Of a stretch of DNA of 32,000 nucleotides, positions 8,896 to 24,035 are shown piece by piece (position 1 is the stretch's first letter; each line of letters opens with the position of its first letter). Location of the stretch: positions 810,001 to 842,000 of the forward strand of contig OW818668.1 of assembly GCA_942493105.1 (NCBI GenBank), read 5' to 3'. This DNA is from an uncultured Erysipelotrichaceae bacterium (GTDB lineage Bacteria > Bacillota_I > Bacilli_A > Erysipelotrichales > Erysipelotrichaceae). Below the pieces are notes generated by a model. The model ran no database searches. It was not told the origin of the DNA and saw only the letters and a program-made list of their open reading frames with translations. The translations under genes were made by a program, and so were the position numbers.

Positions 8896-9521
8896 GATAA
8901 AATATGATTAAATTATCCTTTACTAAAAACTAACTGATTCAGGTAATTCTTGAATTAAAAACATTTTTATAGAAATTCACCTTGTTTATGGATTTCTCTT
9001 GAATGTTTATGAAATCAGCATCATTCAGTTTCAGTAAATATATAATTACTCGTGGTTAGGTAAAACAAAGGTTTAGTAGTAGATGATTAACTCAAGTATT
9101 AGTTCCAAAAGAACAATTTAGATGGTGAGTAACACATAGTAAAAGCATTCATAACCACTTAGATTAACGATAACTAAACTTCTTAATTTCACCAAAAAGA
9201 AGTTAGTGGTGCTTTCAACATATTATGAATAATATGAAAATAGTTAGCAGGCAATTTGGTTTAAATAATCCTCACGGAGAATGGCGCAACTCATAAAAAA
9301 TAGTAACCAATGTTGTGTAAATATAAAGAAACTAAAAAAATTAATTCCTAAAGAGTAATCTTTTTAGATTTGCACAAAGTTTGCTATAAATAGCAGATAA
9401 CCCACCTTTATAGCGCTTATTTCTACCATTATTTATAAATTTAGTTTAAGATGTATTTAAATAAAACTTAGAAGTTGATTTAGTAATTAAATTGGATTTA
9501 CTAAAGGGGAAAGGTAGAAAT

Positions 9522-11660
9522 ATGAAAATTTTATACATAGGGGAATGCGATAGTTTTTCGGCACAGTTTATTGATCGCCACGTTAAAGAAGGTAATTCTG
9601 TAAGCATCATTTCGAGACAGGATTTCTCCAAGTTTAACAAACCAAAACTACAGTACAGCTGGTATGATTATTCGGCTGACAATGTTACTGTTGATCGTAT
9701 CTTCAGCAACATCAAACCTCAACAAGTTGTGTTCGCTGGAAGCTTATTTGGCGATGAAGAGTGGTCTTACGATGCAGACTCTAACCGGTATCTAAGTGAA
9801 CTCTTAAATATTCTAAACTTGTCTAAAAAATATGCTGTTGATAAGTTTATTTTCCTGTCTTCAACAGAGGTCTATAAAGCATATAAGGATGGACCGATCG
9901 GTGAAGAAGGTGATTATGGTCCTTCGACTTATAAAGGCATCCTGACCACTCAAGGCGAGATCCTAGTCAAAGAAGTTGGTGCTTTATCTACTCTGAATAC
10001 GCTTATTCTGCGCTTCAGTGATCTCTATGGATATAAACTTGAAGAGGAAAGAAATGACTTCTTGAGCAGTCTATACCATCAGCTGCAAAAACTGGACGAA
10101 CTTCATCTCAATAAAGACCATAACCTGAGTCCTTTACACATCAATGATGCGGTAGAAGCAGTATACCGCTGTGAAGGCAATACACCTTCTAAGATCTATA
10201 ATGTGGCTGGTAATCGCCAAGTCAATGCTTTGGCTGTGGCTGTTACACTCAAACAGAAGCTCAATAAGGCAAGCTCATTGGTCGCTGTGCAAGGCAATGC
10301 CCATAATAATGAGATCGACTCCAAATTGATCAAGACTGAACAGGAGTGGGGAGAGTTTTATTCCTTTGATGAATTCTTGGCTAACCTGACGATCACTTCA
10401 CCAGTTTCCAATGAAACTGTTCTCGAGAAACCTAAAAAAGAAAAATCAAATCCGGTCGTGCTCCATCTTATCGAGAATGTCGTGTTCTTTGTGTTGATGG
10501 CAACTTTGACAACGTTGTTTAAAGATCACAGTGTCCTAAAGAACGTTGATCTTATGACCATCTATATTGTATCTATTGCTTTATTCTTTGGGATACGGCA
10601 ATCCATCTTATCGATCATTTTAACCTTTGCTTTCTACCTGTATGGACTGCAATTTGATTTCGGTAACTTCATCAACATCGTACTTAATGCGGATACCTTC
10701 CTAAAATTGGCACAGTATATCTTTATGGGGGTCGTAGTTGGTTATACTGTGGATCAGTTTAAAACCAACCAGGCTCAATTGACTATTGAAAAAGAATATC
10801 TTGAGAACGAATACGAAGAGCTAAAAGAAATCAACGACGCCAATGTCATGATCAAACATCAATATGAAAAGCGTTTGATCAGTTACAAGACCAGTTTACC
10901 TCGTTTGTATGCGATCACCAATCAGCTGGATTCTTTGGATCCTGAGATCCTTTTCTCTTCGATCATCAAAGTTTTGGTGGATGTTTTGGAAACCGATTCC
11001 GTATCGGTCTACTCCTATGACAGCCGTAATGGTTATGCTCGTCTGATCGGTGCTAAAAATGAAGAGTCTGTATTCATGGGCAAATCCTTTAAGCTTTCCG
11101 ATCACAAGGAATTGGAACACAAACTATTTGATAATGACATCTTCATTGGCAATCAGTGGGCAGATGGATCACCAGCCATGGCTGGTCCAATCTTCTTCAA
11201 AGGCAACATCATTGCCATCATTCTGATCAAGTCCATGACTTTTGAATCATTAAACCTATACCAAGTTAACCTCTTGAGAACACTGACTTCTTTGATTTCC
11301 TCTTCCTTCATTCGTGCCTATCAGTATGAAGAGAAGGTCCACAACGAAAAGTATTTGACCAACACAGAAGTCCTGGTCACCTCAGAATTCAAACGATTGA
11401 TTGAGTTAAAGCGCAATGACAGTGATCAGGCTTTTGCAGACTACACATTATTGAGATTGATCCATACGGAAGATCCAACGACCTACTACTTTAAAATCAT
11501 GAATTATTTCAGATCGACCGATTATTTCGGAATCGACAGCCAAAACCGCATTCATGTCTTGTTGAGAAATACCGCAGCTCAAGATGTAGCGTTTGTGGCC
11601 GCTCGTTTGAAAGACAAAGAGATTCATTTTGAACTCGTAGATATGAATTCGTTGAAGTAA
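9522..11660 (+). CDS. pelD: PelD-like c-di-GMP receptor candidate with an N-terminal degenerate SDR/epimerase-like domain
   Basis: Start re-picked to ATG 9522 (MKILYIG) after AAAGGGGAAAGG. Residues 1 to about 290 are SDR-like (LSSTEVY, YKG..). The GxxGxxG is degraded to GECDSFS, and YxxxK to YKGIL. About four TM helices follow (VVLHLIENVVFFVLMATL ... YIFMGVVVGYTV), then a coiled coil and a GAF-like region. The C-terminus is a truncated GGDEF-like fold with RSTD (11511-11522) in the I-site position and no GGDEF motif. It is the first gene of a pelDEAFG-ordered operon. Confidence 0.7.
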   Translation: MKILYIGECDSFSAQFIDRHVKEGNSVSIISRQDFSKFNKPKLQYSWYDYSADNVTVDRIFSNIKPQQVVFAGSLFGDEEWSYDADSNRYLSELLNILNLSKKYAVDKFIFLSSTEVYKAYKDGPIGEEGDYGPSTYKGILTTQGEILVKEVGALSTLNTLILRFSDLYGYKLEEERNDFLSSLYHQLQKLDELHLNKDHNLSPLHINDAVEAVYRCEGNTPSKIYNVAGNRQVNALAVAVTLKQKLNKASSLVAVQGNAHNNEIDSKLIKTEQEWGEFYSFDEFLANLTITSPVSNETVLEKPKKEKSNPVVLHLIENVVFFVLMATLTTLFKDHSVLKNVDLMTIYIVSIALFFGIRQSILSIILTFAFYLYGLQFDFGNFINIVLNADTFLKLAQYIFMGVVVGYTVDQFKTNQAQLTIEKEYLENEYEELKEINDANVMIKHQYEKRLISYKTSLPRLYAITNQLDSLDPEILFSSIIKVLVDVLETDSVSVYSYDSRNGYARLIGAKNEESVFMGKSFKLSDHKELEHKLFDNDIFIGNQWADGSPAMAGPIFFKGNIIAIILIKSMTFESLNLYQVNLLRTLTSLISSSFIRAYQYEEKVHNEKYLTNTEVLVTSEFKRLIELKRNDSDQAFADYTLLRLIHTEDPTTYYFKIMNYFRSTDYFGIDSQNRIHVLLRNTAAQDVAFVAARLKDKEIHFELVDMNSLK

Positions 11661-11674
11661 AGGAGGACGAAACC

Positions 11675-12559
11675 ATGCCAGTATGGATTCTATTGATATT
11701 AAATACCCTGTGTTCAGTCCTGTTTTTCTTTACTGTGAAAGACAAACAAGAACGTATCTTCACTTTGTTCTTTCTGATCTTGCCGATATTTGGATTCATT
11801 TTCTATTTCATTCCGAAACTATCTTTCCAATTGACCAAGAAACACAACTTATATGATGCCTCCAATGTAAAACTTAAGATCAGTGAAGAAACTTTCTCGC
11901 AAAAACCAAATGTCCCTGAAGAAATGAACATCGTCTCATTCGATGAGATCATGCAGGTAGGACTCAAAGAAGAAAAAAGAGCCTTACTTTTAAACGTTTT
12001 GAAAGATGATTTGGTTGATAATGCATCGTTTATCCGTTCGGCGATGGGAGACTCTGATTCTGAAACTACCCACTATGCAGCTTCCGCAACCATGCAGATT
12101 TATACCAAACTCAGATCTGCAATTCAAGCCTTGGAAACACAACAGCAGCTTGATCCTGAGAATCCGAAAGTGATGCTCAATTTACTATCTGCAATCAGTG
12201 ATTACATTTTAAGTGGTGTCCTTACCAAAAGGGACAGTGATTTCTACTGTAACAAATACTTCAGAGCATTCAATACTCTAAAGAAATTTGAACCAGGTTT
12301 GCTGACTTGTGATGCGTATTTGAAACAAGCTGATTTTCTGTATTCAAATTTCGAGGTTCACAAAAGCATTGAAACAGCCATCGAAGCCAGAAACCATTTT
12401 GATGTAGAAGAAGCCCATCTCAAACTTTTGGAACTGTACTATAAGACGGGCAATCAACATCAATTCAATGAAGCGTTTGAAACTTTCAAACGTTCTAATC
12501 TGACTGTATCCAACAAGGGACTAGAACTGATTCGGTTTTGGAGCAAGAGGACTGCTTAA
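11675..12559 (+). CDS. pelE: PelE-like inner-membrane protein (two TM helices plus a helical-repeat domain)
   Basis: RBS AAGGAGGA. Two N-terminal TM helices (VWILLILNTLCSVLFFFTV; IFTLFFLILPIFGFIFYFIP), then about 220 aa of helical/TPL-unrelated TPR-like sequence. The assignment rests on architecture and its slot between pelD and pelA. Confidence 0.6.
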   Translation: MPVWILLILNTLCSVLFFFTVKDKQERIFTLFFLILPIFGFIFYFIPKLSFQLTKKHNLYDASNVKLKISEETFSQKPNVPEEMNIVSFDEIMQVGLKEEKRALLLNVLKDDLVDNASFIRSAMGDSDSETTHYAASATMQIYTKLRSAIQALETQQQLDPENPKVMLNLLSAISDYILSGVLTKRDSDFYCNKYFRAFNTLKKFEPGLLTCDAYLKQADFLYSNFEVHKSIETAIEARNHFDVEEAHLKLLELYYKTGNQHQFNEAFETFKRSNLTVSNKGLELIRFWSKRTA

Positions 12560-14277
12560 TGTTTTCTCGTAAACGCTTAGCTTACATCTTAACGATCACC
12601 ATTATTTTTGGCGGACTCTTTTTTTTATTCAACTTGGACTATGATTTTCTAAGATCACAGTCGATCAATGAAGCCGATAAGATTGTCCCTTCTCAAAAGG
12701 TAAGTGCGATACTTAATGGTGATGCTGATGATGGTTTCATCGTCATTGGAGAACCACTTAACGAAACTGAGGAGTTGATCAAAACCAACGTGATCAAAGC
12801 TTTGACGCAGATCAAAAGCGAGATCACAATCGTAACTCATCTCTCACAAGCGGATCTCAGTAAGCATTCGATCTTGATTTTTGTTGTTTCGGATGTTAGC
12901 CAAGCAGGCGGTCTTGAAGAAATTGCAGGTTATGTGACCAAAGGAGGCAAAGCCATATTTGCTGCTGGTATCCCTTTCGAAACAGATTGGCGTTATCTGG
13001 ATCCTTTGTGGGGTATCCTTGAACGTGGTACTTTCAGGACAGTCAAAGACATCACCTTTAACCAAGACTATTTCCCTTACGATAAAATCACAGTCAAAGA
13101 TGGGTATCCGACTTATTCTACAAGCTTAAGATTAAGCGAAACTTGTGAAGTATTGCTTCAAGGCGAAAATGACATCCCCTTAGTGTGGTCTCATTCGTTT
13201 GAATCTGGGAGGATCACCATGATCAATGGAACCTTTATGGAAAGTAAACTCTCCTTAGGGGTCTTGATTGCATCCATCAACAGTACCAAACAAACTTCAC
13301 TTTACCCGATCTTGGCAACGAAAACCATCTTTCTGGATGCGATTCCACCTTTATTTGACGGTAATGATGATCATTCATTTGAGTATTATGGAAGAAGCGC
13401 AGAATCTTTTGTAAGAGACAAGTTATGGGGAGTTCTGCTTCAAAAGGCCAGCATCTTGGATCTGAGATTGACATCGAGTTTTATGGCCATTGATAAGCAA
13501 CCTTTTGATAGCCAAAATGCCAATCAACAAACATTTTCCTACATCAATCGGGAAATCATCCGCAATAAAGGCGAGATCACTTTATCTGGTAATCATGTTG
13601 AATTGAATGATTTGAAGCAAACGCGTATTGAACAAACCGAATCCTTCTTCAGTGAATTCTTCCCAAATTACAATATTCATGCATATTATCCTTTGTACGG
13701 TAAGATCAATCAGCAGCAAATCAATTTAATAAAAACAGTTTATCCTGCCATCGACATTCTTCGCTTGCTTTATGATAGCGATCAGATTACCCAATCCAGC
13801 GGTGATTATCAGGTCACTGATGGACTTGTGATCTATCCAACCACGACTTACGGGTATAAAGCTGAAGGATTACAACTGTATACGTTTATTTCCGTACTGA
13901 CATCGCATGGAGCGGTTTCACACAGCTTTGATATCAACTCTTTGTTTACTGTACCATCGAGTGAAAGTAACTGGAATACTCTGAATAAAAGCTTCGACAC
14001 CTTAAGCGAGATTTATTTCCAAAAAACACCCTGGTTGGATTCATTGACGATTTCACCAGCGGCTGAAAAAGTGAAGGACTTAGATACTCTAAGCATCCAA
14101 ACCAAAACCGAAGCTAATCAAATCACTGTGGCTTGTACAGACATGGCTGTTGGACAGAAATTCATGTTTTATACCACCAAAACGATCCTCAGTGCCATCG
14201 GCGCTAAAGTAGAACGAATCAATTCTCGATATTATATCATTGAAGCATCATCCGCATCGTTTGTATTAATGTATTGA
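12559..14277 (+). CDS. pelA: PelA-like protein, deacetylase-only type (PelA_DA candidate), extracytoplasmic
   Basis: Start re-picked: TAATG stop/start overlap with pelE (12557-12561), with RBS AAGAGGA (12545-12551). Signal anchor LAYILTITIIFGGLFFLF, then about 540 aa outside. The call rests mainly on synteny with Gram-positive pelDEA(DA)FG. I could not verify a CE4-type metal triad by eye. Confidence 0.55.
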   Translation: MFSRKRLAYILTITIIFGGLFFLFNLDYDFLRSQSINEADKIVPSQKVSAILNGDADDGFIVIGEPLNETEELIKTNVIKALTQIKSEITIVTHLSQADLSKHSILIFVVSDVSQAGGLEEIAGYVTKGGKAIFAAGIPFETDWRYLDPLWGILERGTFRTVKDITFNQDYFPYDKITVKDGYPTYSTSLRLSETCEVLLQGENDIPLVWSHSFESGRITMINGTFMESKLSLGVLIASINSTKQTSLYPILATKTIFLDAIPPLFDGNDDHSFEYYGRSAESFVRDKLWGVLLQKASILDLRLTSSFMAIDKQPFDSQNANQQTFSYINREIIRNKGEITLSGNHVELNDLKQTRIEQTESFFSEFFPNYNIHAYYPLYGKINQQQINLIKTVYPAIDILRLLYDSDQITQSSGDYQVTDGLVIYPTTTYGYKAEGLQLYTFISVLTSHGAVSHSFDINSLFTVPSSESNWNTLNKSFDTLSEIYFQKTPWLDSLTISPAAEKVKDLDTLSIQTKTEANQITVACTDMAVGQKFMFYTTKTILSAIGAKVERINSRYYIIEASSASFVLMY

Positions 14278-14310
14278 GCTGAATAAACCAAAGGAAGAAG
14301 GGGGCTAATT

Positions 14311-15759
14311 ATGAAAGTATGTATCATCTCTGAAGGAAGTTATCCATATGTTGCTGGTGGTGTATCCAGCTGGGTACAAATGCTTCTGGACCATTTCAGT
14401 GACATCGAATTTGTAATCTGGTCGATCGCAACCAGTCGTGAAGAAATGAGCGAGATGAAATACACCTTGCCTGCAAACGTCAAGGAAGTTAGAACCATCT
14501 ATCTTAATGATGTCAAATTCAAGACGATCCATTCCAATATCAAATTATCAAAAGATGAGCACGAAGCCTTAAAATCATTGATTATGGAGAATGATCATGA
14601 AGACATCCAATGGAAACCAATCTTAGATCTCATCAAGAATCATAAAGGCAACCTGATCGATGTACTGATGAGTCATGATTTCTTTGATATCGCTGTTGAT
14701 CTGTATAACACGGATTTCTCTAGAACTGTATTCAATGATTTCCTGTGGAATCTAAGATCGATGTTTTATCCTTTACTGTCAACCTTGGTCGATGAATTTC
14801 CCCAAGCAGACATCTATCATTCAGCCTCTACTGGTTATGCTGGTCTTTTGGGCAGTATTGCCAGTTATATCAATAAGAAACCTTTGATCATCACTGAACA
14901 TGGAATCTATACCCGTGAACGTGAGGAAGAAATCATCAAATCCGATTGGGTCATTGGTGATTTCAAACGGAATTGGATCAACTTCTTCTATCGGATATCT
15001 TCAATCTGTTATCATCAAGCTACCAAAGTCGTTTCCTTATTTGAAACCAACCGTGCTTTACAGATTGAAATGGGTTGTCCTGATGATAAAACGATGATCA
15101 TTCCTAATGGGGTAGACGTCAAACACTATTCTTCCCATCTTTATGATATCGATCAAAAAGCAGATATGAAAGTCTTGAGAACCAATTCAAATAAGATACG
15201 GATTGGTGCTACTGTCCGTATGGTTCCCATCAAAGACATCAAGACCATGATCCTAGCTTTTGAAGCTGCATTACAGCGTGTTAGTAATCTTGAACTGGTA
15301 ATTTTAGGCCCTACTGAAGAAGATGTTGAATATCATCAAGAAGTTATGTCTCTGATCGATGATTTTAAACTAAAGAATGTATCGATCATGGGTCGTGTCA
15401 ACGTCAAGAACTACTTGCCTACGTTTGACATCATGTTGCTGACCAGCATCAGTGAAGGACAACCTTTGGCTGTACTGGAAGGCATGGCAGCAGGTATACC
15501 GCAGATTTGTACCAATGTCGGTGGTTGCAAGGAGTTGTTGTATGGAATGAGCGATGACGAACTTGGACACTGTGGAATCATTGTACCTGTCATGGATATC
15601 GAAAAGATTGCCTCAGCTATCGAAGTGTTGGCACTTGACGAAACCCTAAGAGCTCAAATGGGTAAGATTGGTCATGAACGTGTTAAGGCAACCTATCAGA
15701 AAAAAGACTTCCTGGATCATTATGAAGCCTTATATAAATCGACTTTAGGTCAGCAGTAA
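14311..15759 (+). CDS. pelF: PelF, GT4-family glycosyltransferase
   Basis: The N-terminus MKVCIISEGSYPYVAGGVSSWVQMLL matches the PelF signature (EG.YPYV.GGVSSWV). The C-terminal GT-B motif is SISEGQPLAVLEGMAAGIP. RBS GGAAGAAGGGGG. Confidence 0.9.
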   Translation: MKVCIISEGSYPYVAGGVSSWVQMLLDHFSDIEFVIWSIATSREEMSEMKYTLPANVKEVRTIYLNDVKFKTIHSNIKLSKDEHEALKSLIMENDHEDIQWKPILDLIKNHKGNLIDVLMSHDFFDIAVDLYNTDFSRTVFNDFLWNLRSMFYPLLSTLVDEFPQADIYHSASTGYAGLLGSIASYINKKPLIITEHGIYTREREEEIIKSDWVIGDFKRNWINFFYRISSICYHQATKVVSLFETNRALQIEMGCPDDKTMIIPNGVDVKHYSSHLYDIDQKADMKVLRTNSNKIRIGATVRMVPIKDIKTMILAFEAALQRVSNLELVILGPTEEDVEYHQEVMSLIDDFKLKNVSIMGRVNVKNYLPTFDIMLLTSISEGQPLAVLEGMAAGIPQICTNVGGCKELLYGMSDDELGHCGIIVPVMDIEKIASAIEVLALDETLRAQMGKIGHERVKATYQKKDFLDHYEALYKSTLGQQ

Positions 15760-15772
15760 AAGGAGAAACTCT

Positions 15773-17161
15773 ATGGCAGGCATCGGATTTGAACTTAGAA
15801 AAATATTTCGCGGCACTTCGATCAGCAGTAGATTAAAGGGGATTGCCTTTGCGACCATGACAACGATAGGACCTACAATCATCTTCCTAACCATGCTGAT
15901 CAGCATTAATTTAATGTTGACTGCATTGAATGTCAGTGAAGCAGATCAAGTCTTCTTCTCTAGTGCTACCTTGTATCTCTTTCTGTTCAGTATCATCATA
16001 ACTGGAACGACCGGAACGACGATCACCAGATATATCTCTGATAGGATCCATGAGAATGAAGAAGACTATATCCCTTCAGCAATGTTTGGAACATCGATCC
16101 TAATCAGCGGACTGACAGCACTCTTCGCAACGATCATCGTAGTCTTGTTGTATAAGGATGGCATTACCGATTTGGTTTTGCTTGCTTCATTGTATGTTTT
16201 GTCTATCGTGGTCAGTATCACCTATAACTTGATGTTTTTTATCTCAGCCTTGAAAGAATATTTAAAGATCACAGCCGCTTTCTTCTTTGGTTTTTTATCC
16301 GGCGCTCTGACTTTCTATTTGCTCTATCAGTTTACTCAGATCAATATATTGATTTCAATCTTGATGGGTATGATTGTCCTGTTTTCAATCATCAATCTGC
16401 TACTGATTTATCTGATCCTGACATACTTTAATCATTCCAATCGAGATTATTTTAGATTCCTAACTTATTTCAAAAAACACCCTTATCTTTTTCTCAGTGG
16501 TTTTTTCTATATCACAAGCTTATATATCCCAAATATCCTATATTGGATGTATTCAGATATCGCGATCCAGGTTTCAATTTTCAGGGTGGCTCCATCGTAT
16601 GATATGGCACTCTTCTTAGCGATTCTGGTCAATTTATCAACTCCGGTCATATTTGTTGTCAAAGTCGAAACTAAATTCTTTGAAAAGTATCAGAAATATG
16701 TTGGAAGTTTGATCAACGGGACCTATGGTATCATAGAGAAGTATCGTAAGATCATGTTAAAAACCATGGATATCGAACTCTTCTATATTTATGAAGTTCA
16801 ACTGATCATCACCATAATTCTGACCTGTGCCGGCATTTTGCTTCTTCCAATGTTGGGTTTTGGTGGGATGATCCTGAACTATTTCCTCTTGTTGTCGATT
16901 GGCGTATACTGTACATATCTAATGTATTTCACAGTAGTATTCCTGTATTATTTTGATGATCAGTTTGGTAGTTTTATCACGACGCTGACCTTCTTCGTCA
17001 CCACTGTATTTGCCAGTATTGCTGCACTTCAGTTGGGTGTCTCTTATTATCCTGTAGCCCTATTTATTGGTGGGATTGTTTCCTGGGTTGTCGGCTTCTT
17101 TAGACTGAGGACCTTCATGGGAACCATCAACGCAAGACTGTATTGTAAAAGTGCAGAGTAA
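15773..17161 (+). CDS. pelG: PelG, polytopic exopolysaccharide export/polymerisation membrane protein
   Basis: The N-terminus MAGIGFELRKIF is the characteristic PelG start. About 12 TM helices. RBS AAAGGAGAA. Starts 13 nt after the pelF stop. Confidence 0.9.
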   Translation: MAGIGFELRKIFRGTSISSRLKGIAFATMTTIGPTIIFLTMLISINLMLTALNVSEADQVFFSSATLYLFLFSIIITGTTGTTITRYISDRIHENEEDYIPSAMFGTSILISGLTALFATIIVVLLYKDGITDLVLLASLYVLSIVVSITYNLMFFISALKEYLKITAAFFFGFLSGALTFYLLYQFTQINILISILMGMIVLFSIINLLLIYLILTYFNHSNRDYFRFLTYFKKHPYLFLSGFFYITSLYIPNILYWMYSDIAIQVSIFRVAPSYDMALFLAILVNLSTPVIFVVKVETKFFEKYQKYVGSLINGTYGIIEKYRKIMLKTMDIELFYIYEVQLIITIILTCAGILLLPMLGFGGMILNYFLLLSIGVYCTYLMYFTVVFLYYFDDQFGSFITTLTFFVTTVFASIAALQLGVSYYPVALFIGGIVSWVVGFFRLRTFMGTINARLYCKSAE

Positions 17162-17170
17162 AGGAAACTC

Positions 17171-18907
17171 ATGAAGCGTTTTAATTGGAAGAATAGAAAT
17201 TTTCTAGTTGTACTGTCATTTATCCTAGGGATCGGTGTTTTTACTAGTTTTTATTTGAGTTCACTCAATAAAGTTGAAGAACTGCCAGAAGACAATACCA
17301 GCTTGGAAGATTGGACTTTAGAGAACAGCCCACTTAACGGACTGCCTTTGATTGAAAACAAGACAATCTATAAAGTCGATCAGGCTGATGATTTGGATTC
17401 GATTTACATTACTGTTTTTCCAACAGAGACGGATGAAGGACTCATCGATTTTTCAATTTTCGACTTGCATGAATCTTTGAATCAAGACTTCAATCCGACC
17501 TTGAATGCCAACGTTACGATCGGTGATAGCAGTGGTAAGCTATCTGTCTTCGTGGACACCAACTCAATCAATGCCTACATCAAAGTCAGAGGCAATTCCT
17601 CAAGAGGTGCGGCTTTTAAATCCTACAAGATCAAGTTCACTACTGAAAATGACAGCTATAAAGGATTCACTGTTCTAAATCTCAATAAGCACGTGTATGA
17701 TCCCAGCAAAGTTGCAAACAAATTTTCCTTTGATATGATGAGTCAGTTAGATAATATGGCTTCACTGAGAACAAACTTTGTCAAAGTCTACATCAAAGAT
17801 GCCTCTTTACCGACCAATAAGCGTAAATATGTTTATTATGGACTTTACACCAACATAGAACAACCCAATCGGGATTTCTTAACGTCACACGGCTTAGATG
17901 CCAATGGCTCACTATATAAGGCGACCAGTTTTGAATTTCACGAGTATGAAGCTTTGAAGAATGTGGATGATCCTGGCTATAATCAAGCTGCTTTCGAAAA
18001 GATCCTTGAGATCCGCGAAGGCAATAATCATACAAAACTATTGAAGATGCTAAAAGACATCAATGATATGGAGTTGGATTTTGACACGACCTTCAAGAAG
18101 TATTTCAATGAGGAGAATTATCTGACATGGCTGGCAATGAACATCCTGCTGGGCAATGAAGATGTCTTGTCTCAAAATTTCTTCTTATATAATCCTACCA
18201 ATTCATTGACTTGGTATCTGTTACCATGGGATTATGACGGAACCTTTAAATTCGGGATTGCGGAATCTGGACATAAAGCACCGGATTCGATGCAAGGTAT
18301 TCAGCGTCTTACCGCCATACTTTTGCATCGTCGTTACTTTTTAAAGGCGGAGAATATCGATAAACTGACAAAAAAACTGGATGATTTACTCGCTACGACT
18401 TTCTCAAAAACCAACGTCAATAAAACGGTAGACCAATATCTTCCAGTCATGCAGGCAACCTTAGGGAAGCTTCCTGATGTTAGACTTCTAGGAATGGAAC
18501 CCAATCAGCTTAAGACATATATCCATGGCTTCTATGACGAAATCAAATCTAACTACGATGATTACTTAAGTGCATTGAAATACCCGACTCCTGTCTTTAC
18601 AGCGACGCCTATCAAAAACACAGACGGAACAACAACATTTATCTGGGAAAATTCTACCGATTTCGATGGGGATCTTATCAAATACTCGATTCGATTGGCA
18701 AAAGATCCTGGGATGAAACAAATCATCTTCAGTCAACAAAACTTGGTCGTTACGAATTACACCTATACCGGGACTTTAAAAGGAACCTATTACTTGGAAG
18801 TCAAAAGCATCGACAGTAAAGGAAATAACCAATATAGTTTAGACACCTTTGAGAATCTGATCACCCAGATTCATTACTTTGGGATCAGACAACTTATCTT
18901 TGAGTAG
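17171..18907 (+). CDS. CotH-family atypical kinase-like protein, membrane-anchored and extracytoplasmic
   Basis: Starts 9 nt after the pelG stop. N-terminal signal anchor (NFLVVLSFILGIGVFTSFYL). CotH-type core (LNLNKHVYDPSKV..F.., NFFLYNP, LLPWDYDGTF, with W-D-Y-D at 18227-18238). The C-terminal region of about 100 aa is a beta-rich FN3-like domain. Confidence 0.8.
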   Translation: MKRFNWKNRNFLVVLSFILGIGVFTSFYLSSLNKVEELPEDNTSLEDWTLENSPLNGLPLIENKTIYKVDQADDLDSIYITVFPTETDEGLIDFSIFDLHESLNQDFNPTLNANVTIGDSSGKLSVFVDTNSINAYIKVRGNSSRGAAFKSYKIKFTTENDSYKGFTVLNLNKHVYDPSKVANKFSFDMMSQLDNMASLRTNFVKVYIKDASLPTNKRKYVYYGLYTNIEQPNRDFLTSHGLDANGSLYKATSFEFHEYEALKNVDDPGYNQAAFEKILEIREGNNHTKLLKMLKDINDMELDFDTTFKKYFNEENYLTWLAMNILLGNEDVLSQNFFLYNPTNSLTWYLLPWDYDGTFKFGIAESGHKAPDSMQGIQRLTAILLHRRYFLKAENIDKLTKKLDDLLATTFSKTNVNKTVDQYLPVMQATLGKLPDVRLLGMEPNQLKTYIHGFYDEIKSNYDDYLSALKYPTPVFTATPIKNTDGTTTFIWENSTDFDGDLIKYSIRLAKDPGMKQIIFSQQNLVVTNYTYTGTLKGTYYLEVKSIDSKGNNQYSLDTFENLITQIHYFGIRQLIFE

Positions 18908-18911
18908 CACC

Positions 18912-19625
18912 ATGAAAATTAGAAACCAAACTTTACGGCATGAATTTAAGTTCTACATTGACCAGAAGACATATCAAATCCTTAGACAAAGGTTCTTAAT
19001 TGTTGCTAGACCAGATGAGAATTCCAAAAGCGAAGACGGATACTTGATCTCAAGTCTGTACTTTGATGATTACCGAAACAGTTCCCTTAAAGATAAAATC
19101 GATGGAGACCGCTTCAGAAGGAAATTTCGAATCAGAGTCTATGAACACGATCCTGGTCTTATCAAACTGGAATCCAAGGCTAAATTGGACAGCTGGACAG
19201 CCAAGGAAAGCACTCTGTTGACTTTAGAAGAGTATCAGAAAATACTGGCTGAGGATGTGGATTTCCTGATCCTAAAGGATGATCCGCTATGTAAAGAATT
19301 GTATTCACTGATGAAGACAAAGCTCCTAAAGCCTAAAGTCATCGTTGAATATGAACGGGAAGCCTATGTCGTGAACGAAGGCAATGTCAGACTTACCTTT
19401 GATAAACAGCTTCGATCCAGCATCAACGGCCTCGATATCTTTGATCCAACTGTGGTCTATAGTGCCGCTTTACCACAGGACCTATTGGTGTTTGAGGTCA
19501 AGTTTGATGACTTCATCCCCAAACACATTAGATCGCTCATCAATGGGCAAAGCATGCAACGATACGCCATATCTAAATATGTCATCTGTAAAAAGAGAAG
19601 AGAAAGGGTAATCCAATATGACTAA
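18912..19625 (+). CDS. VTC-domain (polyphosphate-polymerase-like, triphosphate-tunnel) protein
   Basis: Start re-picked to ATG 18912, 4 nt after the cotH stop. It is soluble, 237 aa. The N-terminal beta-strand RHEFKFYI is an R-x-E-x-K tunnel signature. Alternating charged strands run throughout (RRKFRIRVYE, IKLESKAK, VIVEYEREAY, VRLTFDKQL, LVFEVKFD). Confidence 0.7.
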   Translation: MKIRNQTLRHEFKFYIDQKTYQILRQRFLIVARPDENSKSEDGYLISSLYFDDYRNSSLKDKIDGDRFRRKFRIRVYEHDPGLIKLESKAKLDSWTAKESTLLTLEEYQKILAEDVDFLILKDDPLCKELYSLMKTKLLKPKVIVEYEREAYVVNEGNVRLTFDKQLRSSINGLDIFDPTVVYSAALPQDLLVFEVKFDDFIPKHIRSLINGQSMQRYAISKYVICKKRRERVIQYD

Positions 19626-20289
19626 TTTCGTAGACATCCTGAAGAAGAGCTTTCTAGAGAACGGCCAAATGGCTGATTTGAGCATTGCTAGTATTTTAAT
19701 GTCTCTGATTTCTGCATTTTTGTGTTCTATGATTATCTATTATGTATACCGGAAGTATTATCGTGGGATCGTCTACAGCAGCAGTTTCAATATCCTGCTG
19801 GTACTCGTCAGTATCGTAACAGCATTTATCGTCATGACCATCAGTTCGAACATCCTGCTTTCATTGGGGATGGTTGGTGCCCTTTCAATAGTACGTTTTA
19901 GAACTGCAGTTAAAGACCCATTGGATGTCGGCTTCCTATTTTTCGCAATTTCAGTGGGGATCACTTCTGGAGCAGGACTCTATATTTTGAGTTTCATCGC
20001 GACAATTTTCATATCGCTGATTTATATCCTTCTGGTTCAAGTCAAAACCTTTACGAAGGTATACCTGTTGATCGTGAAGTTTGAAAACAGTGCCAATGAA
20101 GAAGTCCAAAAGATCCTAAAAACTTTAAAAGGTGAACTTAAAAATAAGACGACTATAAAAGATACGATTGAATTGACGCTTGAGCTTCGCTTGAAAGGTG
20201 ATAATACAGCTTTTGTGAATCAATTGTCTTCATTGCCTGGTGTCAAGAGTGCCGTCTTGGTGGAATACACCGGAGACTTTGGTGAATAA
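19618..20289 (+). CDS. DUF4956-like polytopic membrane protein
   Basis: An ATGACTAA overlap (8 nt) with the VTC gene. About 4-5 TM segments and the family-typical motif LSLGMVGALSIVRFRTAVKDPLDVGFLFFAISVGITSGAG. The C-terminal region of about 85 aa is a soluble alpha/beta segment. Confidence 0.75.
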   Translation: MTNFVDILKKSFLENGQMADLSIASILMSLISAFLCSMIIYYVYRKYYRGIVYSSSFNILLVLVSIVTAFIVMTISSNILLSLGMVGALSIVRFRTAVKDPLDVGFLFFAISVGITSGAGLYILSFIATIFISLIYILLVQVKTFTKVYLLIVKFENSANEEVQKILKTLKGELKNKTTIKDTIELTLELRLKGDNTAFVNQLSSLPGVKSAVLVEYTGDFGE

Positions 20290-21661
20290 ACGTAAAAGTC
20301 TAATCATTATATTTATTATTCTGGCGACAGCCCTGGGGATCACCGGGACTGTCGTTTTTTTTCGTGTCCCTTATACGACTTTGACGTATACAGAAAGTGA
20401 TGAAATCATCACCAATCCTTCAAGAGGTTTCTATGTCCAATTTGATTCAGGACATCTTCAAAAGCTATATGAGCTAGATGGCTCAGGCATCACATTGGTT
20501 CTGTTGGCATACGATATCCAAGATTTTACAGATCGTGATCTGTCTCAAGCTAAACTTGATGAATTATCTTTGGCGTTTGATGCCATCAGAGCGCATGGTT
20601 TAAAAGTCATATTCAGAGCAGCTTACGGATTTAGCAGAAATGCTGAATACTCAGATCCAAGCTCTTTAAACATCATCAAGACCCATATTTCTCAAATCAG
20701 TCCGATCCTCATTGAAAACAAAGACTTGCTTCTTACGGTCCAAGCTGGCTTCTTAGGTCCTTGGGGTGAGTGGCATCATAGTAATCTCGGGGATGATCAA
20801 GGTACTCCAACACAAGCAATCATCAATGAACTGCTTGCGGCTTTGTGTGAAGCCGTACCTCAAACTGTTTCGATAGCAGTTCGCAGACCCAGATTTATTC
20901 GACTGATCGATACTTCCATAGTCGATATCAGCCGCATCGCATTTCATAATGATGCGCTATTGTCGACAGATACTGATATGGGTAGTTATGATCAGGCTGA
21001 ATACACTCGCAACGATGAACTCACTTACATTCATGAACGTCCATATCCAGTAGCCAACGGGGGAGAAATGCCGATGTTAAGTATGTATACTGAACCCTCT
21101 GTTGCCTTTGAGGAACTTTCATTACTGAAATTGACTTATCTCAATCATGAATACAATAAGGAAGTTATTGCCTATTGGGAAACGGTTAATACTGAAAATA
21201 AACCCTTCATTGATCTTATTCAAAAGAAACTGGGATACCGTTATTTCATTGAAAAATCAATCATCCCAAAATCATTCAGAACAGATCAATCCGTAAAAAT
21301 TAAAGTGACTTTGAAGAACTCCGGTTTTTCTGCTGTTACGATCCCGTATCGGATTGAATTGATTGTCCATGATGAATCGGGTGTTCGAAAAATTATCCCG
21401 TTTGAGGGAATCAATCTTCAGACATTGAACTCTGAACAGACCTTAACTATGACGGTTTTAATGAATTTAAGTGAACTGTCTCACAAATTTACTTTGGGAT
21501 TGCGAATCGTTGAGCGTGATATGACTCAAATAATGGATGAACGAACATTGATTCGCTTGGCCAATGAAGGATTGACCATGAAGGATGGGATCACTTTTTT
21601 TGCATCCTATGACTGGGATGGAAAAAAATACACATTAAGTAGTTCTGTAAGAGAACAATAA
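20282..21661 (+). CDS. DUF4874/DUF4832-like protein, putative extracytoplasmic TIM-barrel glycoside hydrolase
   Basis: The start is uncertain: GTG 20282 (8-nt overlap with the upstream stop, GGAG 20272-20275) or GTG 20240. Signal anchor LIIIFIILATALGITGTVVFF. Motifs NPSRGFY, GFLGPWGEWHHS, VRRPRF, FHNDALL and NGGEM. C-terminal beta-sandwich-like domain. Confidence 0.6.
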   Translation: MNKRKSLIIIFIILATALGITGTVVFFRVPYTTLTYTESDEIITNPSRGFYVQFDSGHLQKLYELDGSGITLVLLAYDIQDFTDRDLSQAKLDELSLAFDAIRAHGLKVIFRAAYGFSRNAEYSDPSSLNIIKTHISQISPILIENKDLLLTVQAGFLGPWGEWHHSNLGDDQGTPTQAIINELLAALCEAVPQTVSIAVRRPRFIRLIDTSIVDISRIAFHNDALLSTDTDMGSYDQAEYTRNDELTYIHERPYPVANGGEMPMLSMYTEPSVAFEELSLLKLTYLNHEYNKEVIAYWETVNTENKPFIDLIQKKLGYRYFIEKSIIPKSFRTDQSVKIKVTLKNSGFSAVTIPYRIELIVHDESGVRKIIPFEGINLQTLNSEQTLTMTVLMNLSELSHKFTLGLRIVERDMTQIMDERTLIRLANEGLTMKDGITFFASYDWDGKKYTLSSSVREQ

Positions 21662-22441: not shown

Positions 22442-22520
22442 TCTTTAGCTGTTGACTCACAAATTTAAAACTTCTTGGATCAAGGTCTAAATCATGTATG
22501 TGAGTAAAGGAGAACATGAT

Positions 22521-24035
22521 ATGGCTAGGAAACCCATTAATAACCCTACAAGTACAACACTTTCTACAGACAGAGATCTTTTGTGTGAATTAAGCACAGC
22601 AAATAGAGAAATCGCAGATCAACTCATCGAGAACAAGAAAAATGAAAATGATCTTAAGACAATAGAGAAGAAACTTGTTCATCAAACCAAAGAAAGAAAT
22701 AAATTGATCGCTGAATTGGTAGATGCCAATAAAGAGTTGGGTATCCAGGAAAAAGATAAAAAGAGTATAAACAAAGAATTGGGTGTCATAAAAAAAGAAC
22801 TTGCACATCAAAATACCGAAAATACTGATCAAGCTAAAGAACTAAATACTGCTAATAAAGAGATCGTATTTCAAAAAGGCGAGAAAAAGAAGCGAACAAG
22901 AGAATTGAAAGTGATCAATGAAGCATTGAGTTTTCAAACAAAAGAAAATGAAGATCAAGCTGATAAATTCATCATCATAAAGAAGGCCATCATAAGTCAA
23001 GGTGTGCAAATTGAAAACTTGACGTATCAAAACCAGATGAATGGCTTAAATAATCGCAAGTACTTCCTAGATGCTTTAAAACGATATGATCTTGAATCCA
23101 ATTTACCAATCAGTATCATTATGTGTGAAATCAATGGATTGGCCATTATCAGTAATTCTTTAGGACATTTTATGGCAGACGAAATTCTATCCAGTGTTAT
23201 CAATGTTTTAGGTCATGTCGTGCGAAGAGATGATGTGAGCATATGTTTCAGTAGTGGTGAGTTTGCCCTGATCTTACCAAAAACAAGCATAAATAAAGCC
23301 AAAGAAATAGTAAAAAAGCTTAGAGCTTTCGCTTCAAAAGAAAGATCTGGATCATTTGAGGTCTCAATTTCTTGTGGGACACAGACAAAAATAGATAAAA
23401 GCGAAAGTCTCGATGATATTGTAAAAGCTGCAACAGAGCTGCTAAATATCGATAAAAACATCGAAGGATTACCTGCTGAAAACAATACCATTGGCTTGAT
23501 CATGGAGATGTTATTTGAGAAAAATAATCGTGAGATGTTGCACTCATCTAGAGTCAGTGATATATGTGAAAGAATCGCAAAAAAATTGAACTTCGATCAA
23601 GGAGTTATCAACCGTATCAAAATAACGGCTATGTTACATGATATTGGAAAGATTGGAATAGACGAAGGAATCTTGAATAAATCAGAAAAGCTTGATCCTC
23701 AAGAATGGACAGAAATCAGAAAACATCCTGAAATCGGTTATCGCATATTAAGTGCATCTAACGAATTTGTTGTCCATGCAAATGATGTGCTTCAACATCA
23801 CGAAAGAATCGATGGCAAAGGATATCCTTTAGGAGTTAAAGGTGAAGAAATTTCTCTTGTAGCAAAAATCATATCCATTGCGGATGCCTACGATGCTTTG
23901 ATTTCAGAAAGACCGTATCGAAAAGTCATGAGTGAAAAAGAAGCCATCGACGAAATCATAAAATGCGCTGGTGATCAATTTGATTCAGAACTGGTAAGTG
24001 TGTTTGTGGATATGATGAAAGAAAATACTGAATGA
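22521..24035 (+). CDS. coiled-coil / degenerate GGDEF / HD-GYP domain protein (c-di-GMP phosphodiesterase candidate)
   Basis: Start re-picked to ATG 22521 after AAAGGAGAA. The N-terminal region of about 150 aa is made of 21-residue repeats. The GGDEF fold carries SSGEF (23250-23264) in place of GG(D/E)EF but keeps RRDD (23223-23234) at the RxxD I-site spacing. The HD-GYP motifs are intact: HDIGK (HD at 23637-23642) and HHERIDGKGYP (GYP at 23820-23828). Confidence 0.85.
   Translation: MARKPINNPTSTTLSTDRDLLCELSTANREIADQLIENKKNENDLKTIEKKLVHQTKERNKLIAELVDANKELGIQEKDKKSINKELGVIKKELAHQNTENTDQAKELNTANKEIVFQKGEKKKRTRELKVINEALSFQTKENEDQADKFIIIKKAIISQGVQIENLTYQNQMNGLNNRKYFLDALKRYDLESNLPISIIMCEINGLAIISNSLGHFMADEILSSVINVLGHVVRRDDVSICFSSGEFALILPKTSINKAKEIVKKLRAFASKERSGSFEVSISCGTQTKIDKSESLDDIVKAATELLNIDKNIEGLPAENNTIGLIMEMLFEKNNREMLHSSRVSDICERIAKKLNFDQGVINRIKITAMLHDIGKIGIDEGILNKSEKLDPQEWTEIRKHPEIGYRILSASNEFVVHANDVLQHHERIDGKGYPLGVKGEEISLVAKIISIADAYDALISERPYRKVMSEKEAIDEIIKCAGDQFDSELVSVFVDMMKENTE

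Follow-up and report, generated by a model that had tools for sequence, protein, structure and literature searches.

The window, a 32,000-nucleotide stretch of the genome of an uncultured Erysipelotrichaceae bacterium, carries a pair of overlapping genes, here termed ORF A and ORF B, within a larger gene cluster. The features relevant to this pair are as follows.

9492..11660, + strand: probable PelD with an N-terminal NAD-dependent epimerase domain (Pfam Epimerase/RmlD; PelD from gene order)
11675..12559, + strand: probable PelE (from position only; no Pfam family)
12538..14277, + strand: PelA deacetylase-like protein, DUF2194 (PF09960, E 2.8e-48)
14311..15759, + strand: PelF glycosyltransferase (Pfam DUF3492 and Glycos_transf_1)
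15773..17161, + strand: PelG (PF16933, E 1.4e-99)
17171..18907, + strand: kinase of the CotH family, 578 aa, membrane-anchored at its N-terminus (Pfam CotH, E 2.7e-52)
18912..19625, + strand: ORF A, soluble VTC-domain protein, 237 aa (PF09359, fold model and residue map)
19618..19625, + strand: overlap ATGACTAA, 8 nt, comprising the DUF4956 start and the VTC stop (translational coupling)
19618..20289, + strand: ORF B, DUF4956 membrane protein, 223 aa (PF16316 and MgtC/YhiD profile matches)
20282..21661, + strand: DUF4874 and DUF4832 TIM-barrel glycoside hydrolase, anchored by an N-terminal TM segment (Pfam, start-codon analysis)
22494..24035, + strand: GGDEF and HD-GYP protein whose N-terminal part is a repetitive coiled coil (Pfam)

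The VTC and DUF4956 genes lie in the terminal part of a pel operon of nine genes, in which the accessory module lies directly 3' of pelDEADAFG with an epimerase-PelD and all gaps are 33 nt or shorter, as judged by Pfam matches and coordinates. Since the PelD portion of the first protein has no Pfam match, its assignment was made from gene order; homologues of the probable PelE occupy the equivalent position in 22-28 related loci. Start-codon analysis indicates that the DUF4832 gene probably starts at the GTG at 20282, overlapping the DUF4956 gene by 8 nt. The GGDEF and HD-GYP gene, which by its domains is a possible c-di-GMP regulator, follows after a gap of 832 nt as a separate transcription unit, and its homologues come after the module in 8 related loci. 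A promoter and terminator scan gave a result no better than that for shuffled sequence. A role in phage defence was rejected, as PADLOC returned zero matches for the four proteins submitted.

A group of cotH, 'poly-phosphate polymerase', DUF4956 and DUF4832 genes has previously been described downstream of Gram-positive pel operons, where the epimerase-PelD form correlates with this accessory module (Whitfield et al., 2020; PMC7112168). In S. intermedius the module corresponds to SIR_1594-1591, and deletion of its genes in 2025 resulted in mild phenotypes (PMC12345266). No aggregation or Pel phenotype was reported for the VTC deletion, while the DUF4956 deletion raised the amount of Pel and the CotH deletion lowered both the Pel signal and aggregation (PMC12345266). 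The VTC and DUF4956 deletions are therefore no simple phenocopies of each other. The DUF4832 orthologue SIR_1591 has hydrolase activity and breaks up Pel-dependent aggregates (PMC12345266). The pair in the window is thus an ordinary member of a known, uncharacterised module.

ORF A was found as given in the preliminary description, with 237 residues beginning with MKIRNQTLRHEFKFYI, and its designation there as a tunnel-type VTC catalytic domain is borne out by Pfam, fold and residues, which identify it as a true homologue of Vtc4. It matches PF09359 with an E-value of 1.1e-37 and 130.3 bits (cut-off 23), and residues 9-226 cover profile positions 2-230 of 235, which is nearly the full length. 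The protein is a bare VTC domain without SPX domain or TM segment, and some of its relatives carry a basic disordered N-terminal extension. It already bears the NCBI name 'polyphosphate polymerase domain-containing protein'. Single-sequence searches of PDB sequences gave no match for either ORF A or ORF B, and profiles were therefore required. The profile of 34 bacterial relatives of ORF A matched the Vtc4 catalytic domain 3g3q (E 6e-7), and an hhalign comparison of the ORF A family with a fungal Vtc4 alignment gave 93.7%. Since homologues reach E-values of 1e-150 for ORF A and 1e-128 for ORF B, and the VTC family comprises 10,671 cluster representatives at E<=1e-3, both are genuine genes and not chance ORFs. 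Structure modeling, which had been put forward as a check, yielded an AF2 model of ORF A (pLDDT 91.2) with the tunnel fold and Vtc4 as top match. In the Foldseek search with this model, ranks 1-13 were occupied by Vtc4, Vtc3 and Vtc2 (E 5e-13 to 9e-10, TM-score ~0.7), and YgiF, SaTTM, ThTPase and class IV cyclases followed from rank 14 downward with E-values of 7e-9 or worse.

To assess the catalytic site, the residues of ORF A were mapped onto Vtc4, whose triphosphate and Mn ligands are known from cryo-EM to be K200, R264, R266, K281, R361, K458, S457, Y359 and E426 (10.1101/2023.01.27.525886). The correspondences are K13 (K200), R73 (R264), R75 (R266), K89 (K281), K98 (K294), Y147 (Y359), R149 (R361), R160 (R373), E195 (E426) and S221-K222 (S457-K458), with K13, R73, R75, K89, Y147, R149 and E195 placed by HMMER and hhalign. 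Every mappable ligand is kept in ORF A, and the mapped counterparts are invariant in all 34 sequences, as the proposed tunnel had been expected to require. Among these ligands, K458 is the sole one missing from the inactive paralogues Vtc2, which has Ile, and Vtc3, which has Leu (10.1101/2023.01.27.525886). Its counterpart lies in the invariant pair S221-K222, within a motif [AS]-I-S-K-[YF]-V that opens the last helix and corresponds to the fungal K-F-S-K-F-I; this equivalence was obtained by sequence alignment with fungal sequences fetched with a Vtc4 fragment, many of which are truncated gene calls, and MAFFT set the pair one column off. A C-terminal sub-profile of 60 residues, which is too short, did not reach Vtc4.

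The R-x-E-x-K first strand had been described as typical of triphosphate-tunnel or VTC domains. It is present in ORF A (R9-H-E11-F-K13), but it is not the motif of Vtc4, which reads R196-Q-T-T-K200, and lies between this and the E-x-E-x-K of CYTH enzymes. The first Glu of the CYTH motif is replaced by an invariant Arg, like R196 of Vtc4, while E11, which is invariant in the bacterial family, occupies the position of Vtc4 T198 and represents half of the E-x-E-x-K metal site of the hydrolases. Two further basic residues, R69 and K71, stand where Vtc4 has A260 and A262. Taken together, ORF A is very probably an enzyme of the Vtc4 kind whose catalytic site is intact.

ORF B was likewise recovered at its expected position, with 223 residues, SIVRFRTAVKDPLD at residues 90-103 and a match to DUF4956 (PF16316, E 3.6e-12). 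The protein consists of an N-terminal amphipathic helix, about five TM helices, a conserved motif and the small C-terminal soluble domain noticed earlier, which has a beta-alpha-beta-beta-alpha-beta ACT-like arrangement at residues ~146-217. The motif LSLGMVGALSIVRFRxxxKDxxD spans residues 81-103; among 82 sequences that are 35-90% identical, conservation is at least 95% over N78-D103 and reaches 99-100% at R93, R95 and K99. The AF2 model is weak in the membrane part, with pLDDT <50 at residues 80-98, which is the conserved motif, so that the topology of ORF B is uncertain and fold matches of its TM part carry little weight.

Profile comparisons place ORF B in the MgtC/YhiD/SapB superfamily. 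The 82-sequence DUF4956 profile aligned with E. coli YhiD over 136 columns at 88.6% (E 2.7e-6), and a shallow alignment of 21 sequences gave 3%. All 21 DUF4956 relatives examined produced weak matches to Pfam MgtC, the best with an E-value of 3e-4. Since ORF B scores 16 bits against this family (PF02308), compared with a gathering score of 31.4, DUF4956 is a sister family outside MgtC proper. The top PDB match of the fold search was the MgtC C-domain 2lqj; the TM chains of VTC were absent among the matches, and a channel-like fold was not detected. Similarly, ORF B and 20 relatives had zero matches to DUF202 even at E<=10. The idea that ORF B is an analogue of the VTC channel thus finds no basis in common descent, and we know of no member of the MgtC/YhiD/SapB superfamily with demonstrated polymer-translocating activity. 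A 'translocase' role of ORF B, as we infer it, derives from synteny and not from homology.

The association of the two genes is strict. The translational coupling described for the pair is evident from the 8-nt overlap, and an AAGGG Shine-Dalgarno sequence lies ~10 nt 5' of the ORF B start, within the 3' end of ORF A. In every one of the 80 related loci, the VTC and DUF4956 genes adjoin in the same orientation; the gap between them is 18 nt at the median and at most 100 nt, and in 13 loci they overlap. These loci come from the nearest relatives, which belong almost exclusively to Bacillota, so the synteny figures may not extend to the whole family. A VTC-DUF4956 fusion protein was found neither among the 150 best family representatives nor in the 80 loci, and the extensions of long VTC proteins are basic disordered tails that correspond neither to DUF4956 nor to CotH. 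DUF4956 is the obligate genomic partner of the VTC gene, the two forming the invariant core of the module, and ORF A and ORF B probably also act as a physical pair.

The usual third member of the module is CotH. A CotH-family gene is found in 72 of the 80 loci, in all but one of these cases (71/72) on the same strand and at most 400 nt away, and the eight loci that lack it showed no consistent substitute partner. A hydrophobic N-terminus (signal, lipobox or anchor) is present on 60 of 69 CotH ORFs, and from its N-terminal membrane anchor the CotH of the window is predicted to be extracytoplasmic. The protein of the window keeps the catalytic Asp331, Asn336 and Asp354, of which D331 and D354 align with D224 and D247 of B. 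cereus CotH (5jd9); in B. subtilis CotH, mutant data identified D228 as catalytic and D251 as metal-binding (PMC7821199). Eight loci encode CotH and PelG as one fused protein. Pel genes accompany the VTC-DUF4956-CotH triad in 30 loci and are absent from 41 others, so that the triad is common outside Pel loci, against a statement in the S. intermedius study (PMC12345266). In NELoc-2 of C. perfringens, the triad adjoins a gene for a chitin-synthase-like glycosyltransferase.

We propose, at a probability of roughly 40%, that the gene pair is a membrane-associated polyphosphate (polyP) synthase within this three-part module. ORF A would be docked on an oligomer of ORF B and extend a polyP chain from ATP on the cytoplasmic side. 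From the charge distribution and the low-confidence model, the basic motif R93-F-R95-x3-K99 of ORF B is provisionally assigned to the cytoplasmic surface of the membrane, and ORF B may take up the nascent chain, which would then be passed on or held at the membrane. External polyP could serve as an anionic partner of the cationic Pel, as a donor of phosphoryl groups to the secreted CotH kinase, for which there is otherwise no obvious supply of ATP, or as both. If export occurs, it would be a convergent solution, since ORF B and the yeast VTC channel share no homology. Concerning the separate steps, we lean slightly toward ORF A making polyP, and regard it as rather doubtful that the product crosses the membrane; synthesis and export by the pair are plausible. 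It seems improbable that the full scheme applies, in which a synthase-exporter of non-VTC-channel origin supplies polyP to energize phosphorylation by the surface CotH without external ATP; the exported polyP might also be an anionic cross-linker of cationic Pel. Several observations speak against the proposal: ORF B shows no relationship to the VTC channel, and MgtC proteins are known as regulators and not as channels; the bacterial tunnel retains E11; fusions of VTC with DUF4956 were not found among the representatives and loci surveyed; and the lack of a reported aggregation or Pel phenotype for the S. intermedius VTC deletion, in contrast to the DUF4956 and CotH deletions, fits a simple obligate polymerase-plus-channel pair poorly, although the genetics could still fit if a polymerase without its channel were harmful.

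Part of this evidence suits a polymerase without export, in which polyP stays on the cytoplasmic side and ORF B acts as a membrane anchor, as a regulator that senses a ligand with its ACT domain, or as both. In this case, ORF B could couple polyP synthesis, and hence the local ATP and Pi economy, to the membrane-bound Pel synthase. Characterised MgtC-family proteins bind and regulate partners such as the F1Fo ATPase and PhoR and are tied to phosphate homeostasis (PMC12345266), and the superfamily membership of ORF B with its ACT-like C-terminal domain, the failure of the fold search to detect a channel-like fold and the regulatory-looking rise in Pel upon DUF4956 deletion (PMC12345266) point in the same direction. 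We nevertheless judge a polymerase without export to be fairly unlikely, as it leaves unexplained both the extracytoplasmic CotH beside the pair in ~90% of loci, including those without Pel, and the extreme conservation of basic residues that lie in the membrane region of ORF B and not in its ACT domain. Alternatively, the pair could move phosphoryl groups across the membrane for transfer by CotH to a surface polymer (Pel, a different exopolysaccharide or a protein associated with the wall), with free polyP only as an intermediate. The extracytoplasmic CotH with its catalytic Asp, the PelG fusions, the neighboring glycosyltransferase in NELoc-2 and the loss of Pel signal and aggregation upon CotH deletion (PMC12345266) agree with such a modification. 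It is, however, quite unlikely in view of 41 triad loci in whose fetched flanks no polysaccharide synthase was detected. To our knowledge, CotH enzymes neither use polyP nor phosphorylate sugars, and phosphate on Gram-positive Pel is unreported in PMC7112168 and PMC12345266.

A different objection concerns ORF A itself, which, like the bacterial CYTH/YgiF enzymes, could be a hydrolase with the tunnel fold or could use NTPs in some other way (as a triphosphatase, polyphosphatase, ATPase or cyclase) and owe its 'polymerase' name to annotation transfer. Vtc4, Vtc2 and Vtc3 are its nearest relatives in sequence and structure, with E-values at least four orders of magnitude better than those of CYTH proteins, the first Glu of E-x-E-x-K is an Arg as in Vtc4, and all Vtc4 ligands, including the counterpart of K458, are invariant, which renders a hydrolase unlikely. 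On the other hand, the tunnel fold is common to many hydrolases, as seen from rank 14 downward in the Foldseek search, the second CYTH Glu is invariant in the bacterial family, basic residues are added where Vtc4 has Ala, and the literature searched contains neither enzymology for any bacterial member nor biochemical or genetic evidence of polyP synthesis by a bacterial VTC-domain protein. If ORF A were a hydrolase, a widespread annotation, 'polyphosphate polymerase domain-containing protein', would need correction.

Bacterial polyP is ascribed to PPK1 and PPK2. In B. cereus, PPK-independent extracellular polyP has been reported for which the enzyme is not known and a VTC4 homologue is absent (PMC13484657, 2026 preprint), so that other bacterial polyP synthases and the route of polyP to the outside are live questions. 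A Vtc4-like family of more than 10,000 sequence clusters with intact catalytic residues, linked to a membrane protein and usually also to a secreted kinase, provides directly testable candidates for such a synthase. Should export by the pair hold true, it would constitute a third, PPK-independent bacterial polyP route and account for extracellular polyP. As the module sits in Pel biofilm operons and in the C. perfringens pathogenicity locus NELoc-2, its product may affect matrix assembly and host interaction.

Among known systems, ORF A resembles most closely the catalytic domain of yeast Vtc4 (3G3Q/3G3R, 7YTJ, 8I6V), with which it shares PF09359 and the eight-stranded tunnel fold. It differs in lacking the SPX sensor, the acidic linker helix and the fused DUF202 TM segment, in having Glu at T198 and Arg and Lys at A260 and A262, and in its partner, an unrelated DUF4956 protein instead of Vtc1, Vtc2 and Vtc3. 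The eukaryotic channel is built from DUF202-type three-helix TM domains of Vtc1, Vtc3 and Vtc4 with rings of Lys and Arg, and the complex is under inositol-pyrophosphate control through SPX; neither ORF A nor ORF B contains such TM domains, and the 237 residues of ORF A include no SPX domain. With the CYTH/TTM enzymes (YgiF, the Clostridium and Nitrosomonas triphosphatases, class IV adenylate cyclase), ORF A has in common the tunnel fold, the basic lining and one Glu, but the match is weaker than that to Vtc4 (E >=7e-9 compared with 5e-13), Arg replaces the first Glu and the Ser-Lys pair of Vtc4 is kept. ORF B shares with MgtC/SapB/YhiD proteins (PF02308; 2LQJ, 7QA5) a polytopic N-domain and a C-terminal ACT-like domain, and its alignment with YhiD is collinear over the 136 columns, the invariant basic SIVRFRxxxKDxxD of DUF4956 standing where YhiD has ILVRNQN. 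DUF4956 genes are invariably accompanied by a VTC-domain gene, a pairing that we do not know from MgtC genes. Compared with the Gram-positive Pel accessory group, gene content and order in the window are identical and nothing substantive differs, making it a further example of this module, in an Erysipelotrichaceae genome. The present analysis adds to the published description the invariance of the VTC-DUF4956 core, CotH as its usual third member and the frequent occurrence of the triad away from Pel.

The two overlapping genes under study, ORF A (VTC domain) and ORF B (DUF4956), are genuine genes with numerous homologs. The window derives from an Erysipelotrichaceae-like genome: this family name is borne by the nearest relatives that have a name and by the top related locus. 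Both reading frames, their motifs and the overlap are present as the preliminary description had them: the genes share 8 nt (ATGACTAA), and the AAGGG ribosome-binding site of ORF B lies within the 3' end of ORF A. Since nine genes at 9492-21661 are separated by gaps of at most 33 nt or overlap, they form one operon, listed here with other genes of the window.

Operon gene 1, probable PelD with an epimerase domain, assigned by position
Operon gene 2, probable PelE, assigned by position, without a Pfam match
Operon gene 3, PelA-deacetylase-like protein (DUF2194)
Operon gene 4, PelF
Operon gene 5, PelG
Operon gene 6, CotH
Operon gene 7, 18912-19625, + strand, VTC (ORF A), 237 aa, N-terminus MKIRNQTLRHEFKFYI
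Operon gene 8, 19618-20289, + strand, DUF4956 (ORF B), 223 aa, SIVRFRTAVKDPLD at residues 90-103
Operon gene 9, probable start 20282, DUF4874/DUF4832 hydrolase
3642-6500, + strand, MMPL-family (RND-type) membrane transporter, flanking the region
7112-8560, - strand, beta-eliminating lyase (tryptophanase-like)
22494-24035, + strand, GGDEF + HD-GYP protein
24193-25254, - strand, beta-lactamase-fold protein
27471-29549, + strand, MMPL-family (RND-type) membrane transporter, flanking the region

For the hydrolase gene GTG 20282 is the probable start, preceded by GGAG 9 nt upstream and giving a second 8-nt overlap at the DUF4956/hydrolase junction (20282-20289, GTGAATAA) of the same kind as that between the VTC and DUF4956 genes; the alternative start in the ORF list, GTG 20240, would mean a 50-nt overlap. 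The GGDEF + HD-GYP protein, encoded 832 nt downstream of the operon, carries a repetitive Lys/Glu/Asn-rich coiled-coil N-terminus of ~170 aa. Homologs of it follow the module in loci L019, L024, L028, L030, L037, L049, L070 and L079, and bifidobacteria are reported to have a DGC/PDE gene in place of DUF4832 (PMC7112168).

ORF A is a tunnel enzyme of the Vtc4 type whose catalytic set is complete. It matches the Pfam VTC domain PF09359 over almost the entire length of that domain (E 1.1e-37; 130 bits, threshold 23). A single-sequence search of ORF A against solved structures gave no match; a profile from 34 of its bacterial relatives found the catalytic domain of yeast Vtc4 (E 6e-7), and profile-profile comparison aligned fungal Vtc4 with the ORF A family at 93.7% probability over 203 columns. 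The first 13 PDB matches of the confident AlphaFold model (pLDDT 91.2) are exclusively Vtc4, Vtc3 and Vtc2 tunnel domains (E 5e-13 to 9e-10, TM-score ~0.7), with YgiF, CYTH proteins, thiamine triphosphatase and class IV cyclases ranking lower (E 7e-9 and worse). The proposed homology to the Vtc4 tunnel domain is thus borne out by domain, profile and fold matches alike, and the suggested check on fold and tunnel residues yielded a Vtc4-like predicted structure and, by sequence alignment, counterparts of the Vtc4 ligands.

Counted along sequence alignments, K13, R73, R75, K89, K98, Y147, R149, R160 and E195 of ORF A correspond to K200, R264, R266, K281, K294, Y359, R361, R373 and E426 of Vtc4, respectively. 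In the VTC cryo-EM structure the triphosphate is bound by Vtc4 K200, R264, R266, K281, R361, K458, S457 and Y359 and Mn2+ by E426; every one of these ligands is required for polyP accumulation, and only K458 differs in the inactive paralogues, being Ile in Vtc2 and Leu in Vtc3 (10.1101/2023.01.27.525886). HMMER left the C-terminal helix of ORF A unaligned, and fungal Vtc4 sequences were fetched with a contiguous Vtc4 fragment. In two Suillus sequences S457-K458, counted from E426, fall within K-F-S-K-F-I, and the bacterial VTC family has an invariant S221-K222 within [AS]-I-S-K-[YF]-V where its last helix begins. MAFFT offsets the two pairs by one column; judged by motif, we take them as probably equivalent.

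ORF B matches DUF4956 (E 3.6e-12). The VTC transmembrane domain DUF202 was not matched by ORF B or 20 relatives even at E<=10, while all 21 weakly matched Pfam MgtC (best E 3e-4). The ORF B model, of moderate confidence (pLDDT 67, residues 80-98 below 50), shows an amphipathic N-helix, ~5 transmembrane helices and a C-terminal beta-alpha-beta-beta-alpha-beta domain. Compared with PDB folds, the model comes closest to the C-terminal domain of M. tuberculosis MgtC (2lqj); the list of matches includes P. aeruginosa MgtC and contains no VTC chain. A shallow alignment was insufficient against E. coli YhiD; a DUF4956 profile of 82 diverse sequences from related loci aligned with it collinearly over 136 columns, which span the soluble domain and the three helices before it (hhalign 88.6%, E 2.7e-6). 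Because of the MgtC matches, the fold match and the YhiD alignment, DUF4956 is assigned as a sister family of MgtC/SapB/YhiD; an MgtC-like reading of the DUF4956 protein was also obtained from a model in S. intermedius (PMC12345266). The block N78-D103 (N..LSLGMVGALSIVRFR...KD..D) is >=95% conserved among sequences of only 35-90% overall identity, with R93, R95 and K99 essentially invariant, whereas YhiD has V-R-N-Q-N at the site of this basic block. Hence, of the preliminary interpretation of the pair as a split VTC polymerase/translocase, the homology of ORF A to Vtc4 stands, while the likeness of ORF B to the Vtc transmembrane helices is not one of homology, given the DUF202 and MgtC results. 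ORF B is an MgtC-like membrane protein genetically inseparable from ORF A.

The VTC family is large: at E<=1e-3 it numbers 10,671 cluster representatives, of which 1,385 remain at E<=1e-30. Synteny was analyzed in the 80 best-matching loci of a one-genome-per-species collection, almost all from Bacillota, annotated with profiles iterated from the window proteins and by unbiased all-against-all clustering. The VTC and DUF4956 genes were adjacent on the same strand in 80/80 loci, in the order VTC to DUF4956 in 78/80 (reversed in L078 and L068), with a median predicted gap of 18 nt (maximum <=100 nt), an overlap in 13 loci and no fusion in any of the 80. Bacillota-like pairs with ~38-43% identity to the window occur in MAGs assigned to Campylobacterota (L020, Sulfurovum), Verrucomicrobiota (L031, Udaeobacter) and Archaea (L078, Bathyarchaeota), the result of horizontal transfer or else of faulty binning.

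As a third partner the pair usually has a protein of kinase fold located outside the membrane. A CotH-family gene was present in 72/80 loci, in 71/72 on the strand of the pair and no more than 400 nt away, upstream in Pel operons and downstream elsewhere; the eight loci without CotH had no consistent third partner. Two CotH-family genes, in tandem or one on each side, accompany the pair in L013, L019, L024, L034 and L061. Pel genes occurred in 30 loci, and 49 (among them L008, L014, L016, L035, L041, L043 and L062) had none in the fetched flanks. Among the latter, 41/49 carried CotH (23/26 of those with >=8 kb on both sides), which contradicts the statement that the three-gene arrangement is absent outside the Pel locus (PMC12345266). 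A signal peptide, lipoprotein signal or membrane anchor begins 60/69 CotH ORFs, the remainder looking mostly like start-codon or truncation artefacts. The window CotH has an N-terminal anchor and retains the catalytic residues: its D331 and D354 line up with D224 and D247 of the B. cereus protein, the counterparts of D228 and D251 in B. subtilis CotH, which is inactivated by mutation of either (PMC7821199). In eight Paenibacillus-type loci (L023, L030, L033, L040, L049, L055, L056, L064) PelG and CotH form a single ORF of ~1040-1090 aa that ends just upstream of the VTC gene (~10001), with PelG at the N-terminus (MAGIGFELRKLF...) and the CotH domain at ~520-1040; here the secreted kinase is physically tied to a Pel export component.

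The window locus shows the Gram-positive Pel accessory module in typical form: its genes are exactly the set reported from streptococci and clostridia, where they follow pelDEADAFG (cotH, poly-phosphate polymerase, DUF4956, DUF4832; PMC7112168). When the four accessory genes of S. intermedius were deleted singly, Pel was still produced in every mutant; the DUF4956 mutant had more Pel and aggregated less in sputum medium, the CotH mutant showed less Pel and less aggregation, no phenotype was reported for the VTC mutant, and the DUF4832 protein has hydrolase activity and breaks up Pel-dependent aggregates (PMC12345266). C. perfringens NELoc-2 (CP4_0460-CP4_0468) has two copies of VTC plus a cytoplasmic-membrane protein of 222-226 aa labelled 'tubulin/FtsZ GTPase', followed by CotH and a chitin-synthase-like glycosyltransferase (PMC2879425); from size, position and localization, the 'tubulin/FtsZ' protein looks like a misannotated DUF4956 partner. 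Elsewhere, BT3498-BT3499 (DUF4956, DUF2490) appear in a B. thetaiotaomicron iron-stimulon table with a non-significant fold change of -7.6 (p 0.175; PMC10434189), and SMU_1946 (DUF4956) has a value of 2.5 in an S. mutans sppR-mutant differential-expression table (PMC13454231).

Four readings were weighed, whose probabilities are approximate and which partly overlap. We tentatively favor, at a probability of about 0.4, that ORFs A and B form a membrane-coupled polyP synthase: the cytoplasmic ORF A enzyme would polymerize phosphate from ATP at the membrane, a DUF4956 oligomer would take up the chain at its invariant Arg/Lys motif, and the product would arrive at the outer face to serve the CotH kinase and/or bind cationic Pel. 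We infer the translocase role of ORF B and the trans-membrane step because a cytoplasmic enzyme that depends on ATP is co-inherited with a membrane protein and a kinase located outside the membrane, and because the triad accompanies several different polysaccharide synthases or none; the strongest argument for the step is logical, not structural. Polymerization without export is a rather doubtful alternative. Against the coupled synthase count the MgtC family, known for regulation rather than conduction, the predicted ORF B structure, poor at the key motif, and the unequal deletion phenotypes of VTC versus DUF4956 and CotH. These phenotypes could fit the synthase if a polymerase lacking its conduit were harmful and polymerase loss silent in laboratory conditions.

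That ORF A is a tunnel enzyme other than a polymerase seems unlikely beside its full complement of Vtc4 ligands. Its first strand, R-H-E-F-K, shares the Arg with Vtc4 (R196), whereas E11 stands at the position of Vtc4 T198 and is half of the E-x-E-x-K motif of CYTH enzymes; this retained Glu11 leaves room for a hydrolase. A dedicated phospho-modification pathway is more improbable still.

The genes, the annotation 'polyphosphate polymerase domain-containing protein' and the place in pel operons were already known. In the literature searched we found no enzymology of any bacterial VTC-domain protein and no proposal of DUF4956 as its conduit. New are the full map of catalytic residues with the Lys specific to Vtc4, the MgtC-like rather than VTC-channel-like nature of DUF4956, the basic motif invariant in that family, statistics that show strict pairing, and secreted CotH as a regular third partner, whether or not Pel is present. 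The module had been catalogued before, and its genetics to date are unremarkable; the polyP hypothesis bears on PPK-independent and extracellular bacterial polyP.

Compared with Vtc4, ORF A has no SPX domain, linker or transmembrane segment, and two further basic residues, R69 and K71, which share their strand register with R73 and R75, replace Ala. Many bacterial VTC-domain proteins (e.g., family representatives P0247, P0249, P0250, P0255 and P0289) have an Arg/Lys/Pro-rich, low-complexity N-terminal extension of 130-390 aa, in which no Pfam domain was found and which might be a polyanion-binding tail; the window ORF A differs from them in lacking it. What lengthens the long family members is thus a basic, disordered tail and not a fused partner. 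The SPX domain and DUF202 channel of the eukaryotic VTC complex were looked for and are absent, placing the locus outside that type. By membership, ORF A belongs to the VTC domain family and ORF B to DUF4956 within the MgtC superfamily; if the pair is VTC-like in function, it works with a different membrane component.
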